From Trypanosoma brucei (lineage: Eukaryota), in assembly GCA_000002445.1 (NCBI GenBank), contig CM000207.1, positions 2,993,548 through 3,057,547 on the forward strand: 64,000 nt of DNA, given 5' to 3'. The first letter of the stretch is position 1. Every line of letters starts with the position of its first letter. Positions 25,982-31,900 of the stretch are shown here, in pieces. A program made the position numbers.

Positions 25982-28900
25982 TGTTACTATTATACAATAA
26001 GCTAAATTATTCCTAATATCTATAAAATAAATAAAAGAAACCAAATACAAAAACGTGAGGATAGCTCTCATTCTTCATGTCTTTTCAACCTAAAATTCAT
26101 TTCTACATGCCCCTAGCATAGAAGTTACTAAAATTTAGTACTTTAACAAAAAATTAACTGATACACAAAGGTTTTACAAAAGTTTTAAAATATATCAAAT
26201 TTTATCAAATTCTTGAAATAGAAAATACTTGTAATAATTAAAAAATTTAAAATACTTATAAACTTACAAAAGAAACAGTAACCAGAGAAAATTTCTTGTT
26301 GACAAGGAAACTAGAATTTTTGAACTTTCTTCTATCTCATTTACAAACCTGTTTGTATTGCTCTTGGGGTTTCCCTACGCAAGTGGAAGCCGAGGTTCTT
26401 TGCCTATCTTCCCTATCTTTTGTGTCTGTTTTTCCTTTAGGGTCGGGAATACACTTTTCACCATCGGGCTTGTTTTTATAAAATTTGCATCCCGCTTTCT
26501 CACAGGCGCTTTGGTCTCTTTGTTCCTTGCAATCTTCCTTGAAAGGCACTTTTTTGCTTGGCTCTGTGTCAGATGTGCAAGATTGATTGCTTCCTGCTCC
26601 TGTAGCTGCTGCCATCAGTTCCCTCTTTATCGCTTGTGCTCTGTAATAGTTTAATATTCTCCGAAGCTTATCTATGTCTTCTTCGTTTTCGAGTTCGATT
26701 TGGTCGCTTCCTTCTTGCCCGGCTGATTCTTTGCTGACTTTATTTTTTGTTGCCTTCTCGAACAAGTGGTTTTGGAAGTCATTGCCCTTGTTGTAGGTTT
26801 TCTCTATTTTTTGTTTGACTCTTTGCGTTTCCGGTTCTGTAACTTTGCCGGTTTTGTTCATTAGCAGCTCTGCGAATAATTGTGTTGTTGTCCCTTTGTC
26901 CGTTATGCCCGCCAATGAAAGTTCCATGATATCGCAGATTGCTTTGCCTAACGGTGTGTATTCCTTGTTTTTTTCGTATGCTGTTTGAAAATGAGGCGCT
27001 TCGTTTGTTTTCCTGTTTATGCCTATGTTTGTTAGGTCTGTTAGTGTGTACATCTGGCTTTTAGACCCTAGGTAGATGTATCGTGCAAGTACTGTTGCCC
27101 TATTCGCCGCTTAGGCAGTGTTAAGCGCGCTGTAGGCGCTTAGTGTGCCCAGTATATCGCATTTCGCGCTTCATGCCACCCTTTGGTTGGTTGTGCTCAC
27201 AGTTGTTGGCAGTTTGACGAACCCTCTAGCTGTTAGGTACTGAAGGCCAGCCACATGGGCTGTGGCTGTCATTGAACGACTACCATTTGGACATCCTGGT
27301 AAATTGGCTTTGTGCTCAATGACCTTCGAGGTTTTGGCGGACAGGCAGCCAGCAGAATTGCCGCTGCTGCTGTTTTAATGAAGGCCTGCTAAAAATTCTA
27401 GGCTTTCATTATTCTACCAGACAGGTATGCACTGGCATCAATCGCTTCGAGTGCAGGCTTGATCGTCGTCATGAGGGAAGATAAGTTGCCCTTGAACTTG
27501 TTTACGTACGCAGCCGTTATCGGAAGCATCAGCTTCGACTTTTTTGCACTCCGTTGGGCGGATGCTTGCGGCGCAGTGCTGAGGAAATATACCACAGCAA
27601 ACATGCAGTCAGAGCCCTACATTCCCGCATCATGCGGTCCTACCCCCACCTCCGCATTGAGCCACGCGAGCACCCACTAGAGACAGCGACGCTCCGCCAC
27701 AGCTGCCGACCGATATTTCACACGCAGATAAAGCCTGTGTGCGCTGATGACCCTGACGATGTCAAAAGGGAGGCTTCCGAAAAGTGGATTGCACGGCATT
27801 TTGCACGGAGGGGGAAGGAGCCACCGCGGCGAGAGCACTACGAATTGTGGACTGATGGATCCGTGTCCCTCGGTGAGAAGTCCGGAGCAGCTGCCCTGCT
27901 CTATAGAAACAACACGCTGATTTGCGCACCCAAAACGGGAGCAGGGGAACTCTCATGCAGTTACAGAGCGGAATGCGTAGCATTAGAGATAGGACTGCAA
28001 CGGCTGCTGGAATGGCTTCCGGCATACAGAAGCACACCGAGCAGGTTGTTCATCTTCTCTGACTCGCTGTCAATGTTAACAGCACTGCAGACAGGCCCCC
28101 TAGCCGTAACGGACCCAATTCTGAGACGACTATGGAGGCTTCTGCTTCAAGTTCAGAGAAGGAAGGTGCGCATCCGGCTGCAATTTGTGTTCGGCCACTG
28201 TGATGTGAAACGGAATGAGGTTTGTGACGAAATGGCCAAAAAGACCGCTGATTTACTACAGTTGCGAGACACATGGATCCCCGACATCATTGCTTATGCG
28301 AAGCGAGTGCTTAGGTCGGAAGAAGTCCATGATAACACTCATAGGTTTGGTATCACGGGCAACCACTTTCCAACAAAACATAAAGAAGAACTGACGAGGG
28401 AAGAAGAAACGGCACTGGCACGCTTTCGGGTTGGGTTTTCAAGGCACTATGGATGGATGTTGCGAAAGATTAACCCGAGTGTGCCTCCACAGTGCCGATG
28501 GTGTAACCCGCAACATGCAGCGATAGGACCAACAATACAAACGGTCCCAACTGTTGTGACACGCATTCTTCAGAGAACCTCCGAACCGACCAAGTGTACG
28601 GAATGTGATGCCACATACCAATGCCGCTCGAGTGCTGTAACGCACATGGTAAACAAACACGGCTTTGTGCGAGCTGATGCCCTCCGGAGGATCAAATACG
28701 GTGATGCAACACCTGGAGTGGACATCCCCCCGGAGTCCCCTCCAGTGGTGGCGATCGTTCCTCTACCATCAAGCACACGAGTCCCGATGAGACCGCAGGT
28801 GCTTCATTGTACCCTCTGTGCCTCCAAATTCGCAGTGCCAGGCCGACTATTACACCACCTTAGAACAGTACATGGCATAGGCAGCGGTAGTTGCCGCGTG

Positions 28901-31900
28901 AAAAGGGGGCGAGAGAACGAGGACTCAGTGCAAGGAAATGGTAGCGCCCCAGCAGCGCCAGCCTCTCAGGATACACGGAAGCTGCCATTTCAATGTGACC
29001 TGTGCGAGGCGAGCTTCGGTACACGCTCTTCCCTGTCACTATACAAGAAATTCAAATATAAAAGCATAGTGAAGGAGGACGGTACTGTGGTGGTGGTGCA
29101 ATTCCCCCGTAAGCGTGCCCATGAGGGAAACGTTGACGTCCCGGGGAAGGGGAGGTGCAGTGTGGTGTGTGCCAAAAAGTGCTCAGTTGCGGGGACTCCC
29201 TCATCCGACACTGTAAGGCTTTCCACAAAGGTGAGGGAGTCGAGCTTAAATGCAGCAAAAGCACAAAACTGTGTGCCACTGATTCCCCGCATACAAACGC
29301 ATCCATGTTGGTGTGCCCGACATGCGGAAGGCAGTGTGCTAGCAAAACTGGCCTCATCCTACATCAAAAGAAGATGCACAGTATGAAGGTAGAGCGCGCT
29401 GTTACCAGCGAAAGCGGCGACTGCAAAGAAACGTCGCTGCACTTGATGAGCTGTCCCGGTTTGAAGGAATTACGTGTCAGGTTTGCGGTAGAAGGTGTGT
29501 GTGTGCAGGATGTATGCTTCTCCAAAAGGCTGGCGCAATTTCTCATTGCGGTTGAACGGAGCCGGCCGCAGGTGAAGTCCTCACCTAATGTAACAGTCAT
29601 ACAACCCACTCTCCATTCTGCAACTTTCCCCCTTATTGCCGAGTGTGGAGGTAGCAGGAAAAGCACCGGATGTAGGAATAGTCCAGACACCCTCAGAGAC
29701 AGAGGGGGTATGCAGTCAACAAGCAACAGAAACAGAAAAGGGGGAAGAGAATAATAAACGAATAACAAAAATCAAAACAAAAGGATTGCTAATTGACATC
29801 TTTGGGAGAGTCTGGGTTGGGTGGCTTCTCGCCCCATCTGCTGTATTCCGTTCAACTGCGGAGCTACAACAAAAATTATAGAGAGTGTGTTAGGCTGAAT
29901 AAAAAAAGGGAGACTCTACCACAGTTGCCAGACCGATAGCATCTCAGGGCTCTACGGTGATGGCTGATGGCCGCGCCAGTGGGGGGAAACTCTCACGAAG
30001 GCACGAAGAAAATTTAAAAAAAAAAGTATTGCAGCACAATTAGGTTCGTGTATGAAGGTTGTGGTTTTTTCTTTTCTACAAAATTGCCTTGATACACTTT
30101 CCCCCTATAAAGCTCTGGTGTGGTTGTTTTGCCAAGGTTTTACATACGAATGAAAACGGAAATCCTCCAGTGATAATAGCTGATAGTATTCAATTAGTTT
30201 ACGTATTAAGTTCAAAATAGGCTCTACTCTCTCTTTCCCTGTGTCCCACTTCTTTATTCCTTGCGACACTAAATATCCCTCATCCATTCAACAATTGCCG
30301 CCCCCTGTTCTCAACATTTTACGTTGTGTTGCATCATCAGACTAAAAACTACGGTCCAACTATTTTCTTCTCTGCATGTCCATCTCTCTACTTGTAAGCA
30401 AAATAATTGATATCGATGTTTGCGCCTCCTGTATCATGTGCGTTTGCACCGTGGTCTAGCTCATCCATTTATTTCCCTCGAAACTATTTCCTTTCTTTTA
30501 GCTTTCTTTTACTTTCATTGCAGAGAAAATGTCTATCTCATCAATATATACACTGAACCATGCCACTCCCTTTTCTTTATTATCTTTATCCCAATGTGTA
30601 AGTCTATGACTGTCGAAGTTTTTGAGTTTGGCACTGCAAATACACGATTTCCTTTCCTCTCCCCTTCCATTGCTCACTCCCTCTCGTATTCACATTTGCC
30701 TATGCAATTGTTTGAAGTGATTCTATTTTTCTTAACTTTTAGGTTTGTACAACCACCACCCTTATTATAATATTCGTATATACACACTCACAACACACTA
30801 CTAAAATTGTTATTATTATAAACTAACCAATATCCATAATATAAACAAGATTAACCAAATGAGAATAGAAATCAATTTTCATACCCTACAACTATAATAC
30901 CTTGTACACATATGCTACCGTGATACACATTATACTATAATTCTCAATAGTCTTGAACCTTTCGTCAAAAATCCTTAAAATATATCGTGTTACAATAGGT
31001 GTACCAATTTTTCTCAAAATAGCAAGTTTTATAAATTCATAAATTTGAGGAAAAACCCTTTAACAATTAATTATAGAATCAAAAATGCAAGCAAAAGAGG
31101 GGAAGTTTTAATGAAAAAAGAATTGCTTCCTGTGGTGTTTGTAGTCTTGCCATTTGTCTCTGTTGCTGTTGTCACTTTGATTTTGCACTCCCCATCTTTG
31201 AATTCGCATCCACCCTTATTGTTGCATTTAGTTTCGTCTTTTTCGCCTTTGCAATCCTCTGATTTTTTGGCCAGATCTGTTGCTGGAGTGGCTACTGTAT
31301 TCTTCTTGTCGGCTTCAAGTTCCTTGGCGTTTCTCATACCTTCATTGTGGCTTATTGCTGCGGCTCTATCTTCCACTGACACCATGTTCGCGATTTCTTT
31401 CGGCTCTGTTTTTTCATTCAAGCGAATTGCTGCCTTGGCTGTTGTGAGTGGAGTGACGAACATTTCTTTGAACTTTTCGTTGCTTTCGCCGTATGTTTTA
31501 TCCACAAATTCTATTAAAGCCTTCGCCTCTATTGCATCTTCAGGCTTTTTGATGTTGGAGTACTTTGGGATGCAGTTCCTTAGGTAGTTAAGCACGAGGT
31601 TGCTATGCTTAAGTACCTGGCCGGAAATCGCATCTGTGCTTCCCAGGGAAGCTTTATATGTTTTTAGCGCCTGGCAAAGTGTGTGCTTTATCCGCTTTGT
31701 GCTTCCTGGTGGTTCAGTCCCGGCTGGCGCTGTTGCTTCGCTGCAGCTTGCTGCCGGGTCGTTGCTGCTAAAAAGTTGGGCGTCTGTTGCTGTCGGTTTA
31801 GGTTTCGTTGTGGCTTGTTGTGCGGTAAGCTGCTCATTGTTGTCTAGTACGCAGCTGTTAGCTGCGGCTGCGAATGTTTTTGCGTAGTTGCCGTCCGACG

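Follow-up and report, generated by a model that had tools for sequence, protein, structure and literature searches.

A truncated VSG gene is joined to a truncated ingi element

The final 64 kb of the assembled chromosome 9 of Trypanosoma brucei brucei TREU927, a stretch of 64,000 nucleotides (nt) that was analysed as a whole and is called the window here, ends with the assembly at 3,057,547 and holds a subtelomeric array of 16 variant surface glycoprotein (VSG) cassettes. The cassettes are all on the minus strand, 16-mers of the 3' untranslated region (3'-UTR) and cores of the 70-bp repeat mark them, and their open reading frames (ORFs) match Pfam VSG domains. In cassette 7 of this array, an A-type VSG pseudogene fragment (VSG-7, 26256-27556, minus strand) is joined directly to the 3' half of an ingi retrotransposon (ingi-1, 27557-30025, plus strand). 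The structure needs one join only, that of ingi nt 2783/2784 to the VSG-7 codon boundary 75/76 or 76/77, with everything that lay between these two points lost.

VSG-7 extends from residue 76 or 77 to the end of its closest relatives. It matches PF00913, the A-type N-terminal domain, over profile positions 70-336 of 367 (E 1.1e-13), its C-terminal cysteine-rich region aligns to that of the relatives, and its tail, which resembles a glycosylphosphatidylinositol (GPI) signal, reads NSSFLVNKKFSLVTVSFVSL. The relatives are 62-66% identical to VSG-7 and comprise EATRO1125 VSG 1125.4252 (66%), VSG 1125.1034 and Lister 427 VSG-1328. Alignment to them reveals that VSG-7 lacks 75 N-terminal codons, including those for the signal peptide, or 76 codons if the Ala codon that is common to the first three ingi bases (GGC on the plus strand, GCC on the minus strand) is assigned to ingi. 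A first-pass annotation of the window had described the sequence preceding ingi-1 as minus-strand coding sequence for the N-terminal domain of VSG-7 without its first ~80 codons, and that description is borne out, as is the start coordinate of 26256, which is the last base of the VSG-7 terminal stop codon (26258-26256). The reading frame is interrupted by a frameshift near 27400 and by in-frame stops at 27377, 27173, 27113 and 26339, the last of which takes the place of a conserved Trp. With these stops and the frameshift, VSG-7 could play no part in antigenic variation other than that of donating segments. Pseudogenes make up 80-90% of the VSG repertoire (PMC6464242), and VSG-7 resembles the pseudogenes and fragments in the silent VSG archive of TREU927 in being a minus-strand cassette with a 16-mer, an upstream 70-bp repeat, stops and a frameshift; it differs in that its 5' truncation point can be traced to a specific retroelement junction. 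The 3'-UTR 16-mer at the 3' end of cassette 7 (26182-26197, minus strand) reads GTTTTAAAATATATCA on the plus strand, with one mismatch to the consensus. An ORF of 68 amino acids spans the VSG-7/ingi-1 junction.

A BLAST comparison of the region with the window aligned 27557-30023 to 46140-48612 of ingi-2, a full-length copy farther along the array, at 96.6% identity over 2473 columns, and the bases to the left of 27557 are unrelated to ingi-2. Thus, ingi-1 does start abruptly where the first-pass annotation had placed its start, at the equivalent of ingi-2 position ~46139, and the precise alignment of the two copies that had been proposed as a check fixes the breakpoint at ingi nt 2784. The element comprises ingi nt 2784-5256 (47% of the full length) and includes the 3' RIME half as well as a poly(A) tail of ten A residues (A10, 30016-30025). 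Part of ingi-1 (28438-30023) also matches the minus strand of a third copy, ingi-3 (62410-64000), and the divergence of ingi-1 from the other two copies is 3-4.5%. Its reading frame is interrupted, which leaves at least two ORFs (27554-29386 and 29155-29754). A domain search of ingi-1 recovered only RNase H (PF00075, E 2.8e-8, 27836-28249) and the C2H2 zinc finger, with fingers at ~28805-28873, whereas the reverse transcriptase (RT) domain was found in ingi-2, but not in ingi-1. The conserved 5' signature of 77-79 bp (Pr77), which is present in ingi-2 at 43357, is not in ingi-1. With its start at element nt 2784 and the signature gone, ingi-1 thus counts as a truncated remnant that is non-autonomous.

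The homology of the whole element to ingi and its poly(A) tail place ingi-1 in Tbingi, of the ingi/RIME family and the ingi clade of retrotransposons that lack long terminal repeats (non-LTR), with which it shares the RNase H, the C2H2 zinc-finger coding sequence, the 3' RIME half and the poly(A). In contrast to Tbingi, it lacks nt 1-2783, and with them the 5' signature/promoter, the endonuclease and the RT; it also lacks the 12-bp target-site duplication (TSD) of the family and a target motif at the canonical distance. The 5' signature and the TSD appear to be missing because of a deletion, and not because ingi-1 is another kind of element. What remains is the 3' half of a non-LTR element, ingi, that is now dead, and nothing at the locus is functional.

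The far side of ingi-1 is ordinary cassette spacer

Immediately beyond the poly(A) tail lies a unique, pyrimidine-rich sequence (30026-30760), which is the part of the cassette-7 upstream spacer nearest the 70-bp repeat and which runs into the 70-bp-repeat core of the cassette (30761-30799, plus strand). Seven other cassettes have this core upstream of them; here it is now parted from VSG-7 by ingi-1 and 735 bp of spacer. The sole match of the spacer elsewhere in the window is a weak one, between 30551-30637 and the equivalent spacer at 21640-21725 (69% over 88 nt). Searches of the right flank (30026-30760) with tblastn detected no VSG similarity, in agreement with the first-pass annotation, which had called this side non-coding spacer and not the rest of VSG-7. 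The annotation had also suggested a search for the missing 5' end of VSG-7. When the first 100 residues of the three relatives were compared with the window by tblastn, the only matches were the junction itself and the unrelated VSG-12, and the missing end is thus neither distal to ingi-1 nor anywhere else in the window.

It might be asked whether VSG-7 and this spacer are true neighbours, or whether two loci were merged inside the 2.5-kb ingi repeat during assembly. The chromosome 9 assembly stops inside ingi-3, which indicates that ingi copies are hard to assemble through, and neither ingi-1 nor ingi-2 has a TSD. However, the VSG-7/ingi breakpoint is itself unique sequence, so that the join of a truncated ingi to a truncated VSG exists in any case, and the differences of 3-4.5% among the ingi copies are enough to separate Sanger reads. 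Moreover, the right flank is found exactly where the spacer and 70-bp repeat of cassette 7 are expected. We regard an assembly artefact of this kind as very improbable.

The flanks of ingi-1 and the ingi target site

Integration of ingi/RIME elements produces a TSD of 12 bp (PMC3820030). The first-pass annotation had found no convincing TSD around ingi-1, and our analysis leads to the same view: when every register within +/-40 nt is compared, 12-mers from the two flanks agree at 8/12 positions at best, 8/12 is also the mode among randomly paired flanks, and the clear 12-bp repeat that could have spoken against that view was not found. Cross-combinations of the 5' and 3' flanks of the three ingi copies similarly gave matches at chance level only. 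A canonical insertion of a 5'-truncated ingi into VSG-7, the TSD of which had since decayed, was nevertheless considered, given the 'ttgca' similarity between the flanks. In one register, TTGCACTCCGTT (27545-27556) and TTGCAGCACAAT (30029-30040) share 7/12 positions, but a match of 7-8/12 is at the level of chance and the 3' copy does not directly follow the poly(A). In addition, a divergence of 40% between the TSD copies is incompatible with the 3-4% divergence of the element, and the sequence past the putative TSD is not VSG-7. The chance-level match of the flanks and the non-VSG right flank effectively exclude a canonical insertion with a decayed TSD.

A conserved motif reportedly precedes the TSD of these elements. 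We built a target-site profile from the 52 flanks of 5'-complete ingi/RIME copies that are printed in the TREU927 table of PMC4660242. In the profile, G-T-Y-G-G occupies -22..-18 and a T stands at -16, ahead of the A/T-rich start of the 12-nt TSD, and the TSD half is consistent with the 12-bp TSD described in PMC3820030. The 12-mer at the poly(A)/flank boundary of ingi-1 (30024-30035, plus strand), which reads AAGTATTGCAGC, reaches the 99.8th percentile when scored against the profile's TSD half. Since the A10 tail is intact and the flank is TSD-like, these data suggest that the 3' junction of ingi-1 (30025/30026) is the original integration site. The 5' flank, scored in the canonical register, reaches 3.0 bits, or about the 90th percentile of the background.

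A sequence resembling the ingi/RIME target core, CCGTTGG (27551-27557, plus strand), is located directly on the 5' junction, as opposed to its canonical position 17 nt upstream. The likelihood of finding it on a junction by chance is ~0.8-1.3% for one junction, and the target core was at the junction in none of the 11 other truncated TREU927 ingi copies in the table (0/11). In this small sample, the target-motif scores of the truncated copies are intermediate between those of complete copies and background. The presence of CCGTTGG at the 5' junction is probably a coincidence. The ingi endonuclease itself could have set the left end of the deletion, given that a near-perfect target core stands at the VSG-7/ingi-1 junction in insertion orientation, although we think this improbable. 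The cut could have been a second nick in the same retrotransposition attempt (a dual-nick form of target-primed reverse transcription, or TPRT, that replaces the intervening strand), or it could have come from a later, abortive attempt that turned into a break. If this were true and general, the ingi endonuclease would, through its activity, directly generate VSG fragments and rearrange the arrays. The wider interest of the locus lies only in the question of whether ingi endonuclease target motifs mark breakpoints, for which one case is insufficient and the 11 other truncated copies are negative.

The element in the TREU927 catalogue

Khan et al. 2015 (PMC4660242) tabulated the ingi/RIME copies of TREU927, and their table reproduces the 100-nt 5' flank of ingi-1 letter for letter and lists the element as NC_007282:3021104-3023572, element 2784-5255, 5' 'tr', 3' 'ok' and 'Partial INGI'. 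The breakpoint at nt 2784 that we obtained is the number given in this catalogue, and ingi-2 and ingi-3 also appear in the table at the expected offsets. By rough counts, copies truncated at the 3' end seem at least as numerous in the table as copies that are genuinely truncated at the 5' end and have an intact 3' end. Examples of the former comprise element 1-655, 1-716, 1-1967, 1-2208, 1-2408, 1-4119, 1-4730 and 1-4802, and genuinely 5'-truncated loci number ~5, versus dozens of complete copies. Many rows of supplementary table 1 of PMC4660242 are duplicated under two coordinate systems, and several rows marked 'tr' are flanked by ingi sequence itself and represent splits in the BLAST alignment, so that counts taken from the table overstate the truncated elements.

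How the junction may have formed

For the order of events and the mechanism of joining, we infer a history in which an ingi inserted into the spacer upstream of VSG-7 and a single deletion followed later, and we give this history about an even chance of being correct. In the first step, an ingi would have integrated by TPRT into the spacer that separated VSG-7 from the 70-bp repeat, in a silent array. In the second step, one break-and-rejoin deletion would have taken ingi nt 1-2783, the VSG-proximal part of the spacer (between a few hundred bp and ~1.3 kb) and 75-76 codons from the start of VSG-7. A single deletion of this sort accounts for the 5'-truncated ingi, the 5'-truncated VSG, the absence of a TSD and the absence of a VSG 5' end on the far side. 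The right flank, being an ordinary cassette spacer that ends in a 70-bp-repeat core, supports a deletion after insertion. Both partners are old, with ingi-1 diverged by 3-4.5% and VSG-7 carrying five disabling mutations. Erosion after insertion is enough to explain the 5'-truncated class as a whole, since 3'-truncated copies, which cannot arise by TPRT, seem at least as frequent. Rearrangements associated with ingi/RIME elements have been documented between T. brucei genomes (PMC2854126).

Rejoining of the ends was presumably by microhomology-mediated end joining (MMEJ), as T. brucei lacks non-homologous end joining (NHEJ), and it may have used at most 3-5 nt (GGC/GGCGG). T. brucei has been found to join ends by MMEJ, with no NHEJ seen (Glover, Jun & Horn 2011, PMC3045614), and no end-joining route other than MMEJ is known in it. 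The zone of breakpoint ambiguity, which is a possible microhomology, is GGCGG at 27557-27561, as judged from the proteins only. The ingi side of the breakpoint reads GGCGGATG, and the VSG side is deduced from the conserved Ala (and Thr) of the relatives: GGC corresponds to an Ala codon on the minus strand, all three of the closest VSG relatives have Ala at that position, and the final GG of the zone would fit the Thr codon ACC. The possible short, GC-rich microhomology is a feature that the ingi-1 junction shares with the MMEJ deletions and one-sided MMEJ gene conversions described for T. brucei (PMC3045614).

Several considerations weigh against a deletion after insertion. Experimentally induced MMEJ in T. 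brucei gave small deletions, with a mean of 284 bp, and used microhomologies of 5-20 nt (PMC3045614), whereas ingi-1 would call for a deletion of 3 kb or more and offers no more than 5 nt of usable microhomology, a length that is at the bottom of that range and comes from protein alignment only. The catalogue counts are rough, owing to the duplicated rows and the 'tr' ends created by alignment splits, and the history is read from one allele only. Finally, a truncation that was coupled to integration and accompanied by a target-site deletion leaves an identical structure, so that the timing of the deletion cannot be read from the sequence alone.

This last alternative would involve an abortive TPRT that was primed at 30025/30026 and stopped at nt 2784, with the cDNA then being attached through microhomology to VSG-7, at a break in the top strand. 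With the top-strand break located in VSG-7, and not 12 nt downstream, a target-site deletion of ~0.3-1.5 kb would replace the TSD. Such a mechanism has the appeal of requiring one event where a deletion after insertion requires two, and CCGTTGG on the 5' junction, with its chance of ~1%, could point to the endonuclease. In mammals, 5'-truncated L1 insertions with a target-site deletion have an intact poly(A) junction, no TSD, a loss of host DNA and little or no microhomology. By analogy with L1, the intact poly(A) junction, the TSD-like flank and the clean 5' breakpoint with 0-5 nt of microhomology at ingi-1 may reflect the same process, and the end state is the same in both (5' truncation, no TSD and loss of host sequence). 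Trypanosomes, however, are without NHEJ, and the L1 comparison does not make the timing of the deletion at ingi-1 readable here. Ordinary 5'-truncated products of TPRT would retain the TSD and the motif at -22..-18, but ingi-1 has no TSD and its canonical register scores only 3.0 bits. Furthermore, 5' truncation is uncommon in ingi, with ~5 genuine loci as against dozens of complete copies, and 5'-truncated copies are not in excess of 3'-truncated ones. To our knowledge, target-site deletions have not been documented for ingi, which also counts against a truncation during integration. On balance, we consider an origin during integration doubtful.

The neighbouring ingi copies

The full-length copy ingi-2 (43357-48612, plus strand, 5256 bp) starts with the ingi 5' signature ccctggcgatgcc and ends in an A-run. 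Its poly(A) adjoins VSG-12, an A-type VSG (48613 to ~49570) that is truncated at the 3' end and stops at ~residue 317. The 5' flank of ingi-2 (43257-43356) lies at the 99.55th percentile on the whole target-site profile, and no TSD matching this target-like flank was found on the 3' side; ingi-2 is rearranged on that side. An ingi on chromosome 11 (NT_165288:127834) has a 5' flank that shares 88% identity with these 100 nt, indicating that the ingi-2 flank is a repeated unit or was duplicated along with the ingi. A likeness between the two ingi-2 flanks, GTTTCGCC, was rejected as its local alignment score equals the shuffle mean.

The non-contiguous flanks of ingi-2, its lack of a TSD and the likeness of its 5' flank to that of the chromosome 11 ingi indicate that sequences around ingi copies are indeed rearranged in this region, and they lend some weight to gene conversion as the source of the VSG-7/ingi-1 junction. 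A break in or near an ingi may have been repaired by copying a VSG from elsewhere, with homologous recombination in the conserved 3' region of the VSG and one-sided MMEJ at VSG codon 76 and ingi nt 2784, or the flanks may have been joined by ectopic exchange. RAD51-dependent, one-sided MMEJ gene conversion has been shown in T. brucei and discussed for subtelomeres (PMC3045614), and VSG arrays are known substrates of segmental conversion (PMC6464242). Nevertheless, neither a donor nor a reciprocal product was found in the window, and the closest known VSG relatives are only 62-66% identical. Gene conversion is also more complicated than a deletion, and it leaves unexplained why a normal cassette spacer occupies the expected position of the right flank. 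We therefore view gene conversion or ectopic exchange as unlikely at ingi-1.

The third copy, ingi-3 (62410-64000, minus strand), breaks off where the window and the chromosome 9 assembly end, and it is not biologically truncated. Its poly(A) adjoins VSG-16 (~61300-62409), a 5'-truncated B-type VSG that is interrupted ~130 codons from its start; the rest of VSG-16 would fall past the assembly end. The 3' flank of ingi-3 is TSD-like too (registers starting at 62415 and 62413), and its 5' flank in the PMC4660242 table consists of only 6 nt. The first-pass annotation had grouped the VSG-12 and VSG-16 junctions with that of VSG-7 and proposed that three of three ingi ends in the array coincide with VSG truncations. 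The VSG-12 and VSG-16 junctions do exist, but the systematic link that the proposal implies is not supported. Five ingi/host junctions are visible in the window, with three in VSG coding sequence and two in spacer (the 3' end of ingi-1 and the 5' end of ingi-2). VSG coding sequence makes up ~45% of the non-ingi array (~22.7/49.9 kb, from the cassette map), and the probability of at least three of five junctions falling in it is then ~0.42, and that of every ingi meeting a VSG at one or more of its visible ends is ~0.2. Three of three ingi copies truncating a VSG is thus at chance level, with ingi-3 being cut only by the end of the assembly.

The VSG array around the junction

Subtelomeric VSG arrays of T. 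brucei are known to consist mostly of pseudogenes and fragments interspersed with ingi/RIME elements, and these elements have been tied to rearrangements. Insertions of ingi/RIME in VSG regions have been reported before (PMC4660242). The finding at cassette 7 is correct but is ordinary array decay, and the partial ingi copy was already published in the TREU927 table. What the locus offers is a clean and fully resolved case in which one VSG fragment and one truncated ingi meet at a single breakpoint.

Other parts of the array have counterparts in the strains for which VSG sequences were compared. The VSG-9 ORF (33609-35102) corresponds exactly to the TREU927 protein EAN77443.1/XP_827773.1, which is annotated as 'VSG, atypical', and it clusters with Lister 427 VSG-619. 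VSG-1 (5108-6523) encodes a protein that matches Lister 427 VSG-1147 (AGH60086.1) at 100% identity and that falls into one cluster, at >=90%, with EATRO1125 VSG 1125.1151. The matches of VSG-1 and VSG-9 in other strains indicate that parts of the array are conserved between strains, and a syntenic comparison should therefore be feasible.

The left boundary of the VSG array is formed by a degenerate ingi-related retroelement (292-3026, plus strand), which is DIRE-like, probably continues past the left edge of the window and was missing from the ingi count of the first-pass annotation. It contains RT (PF00078) and RNase H regions that share 33-45% protein identity with those of ingi-2, with no similarity at the nucleotide level. 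Near cassette 7, the 70-bp-repeat region upstream of VSG-6 carries an uninterrupted run of 80 ATT triplets, (ATT)80, that covers 240 bp (25740-25979) and far exceeds the triplet runs that the window's other cassettes contain; the second-longest run has 6 units (60924-60941).

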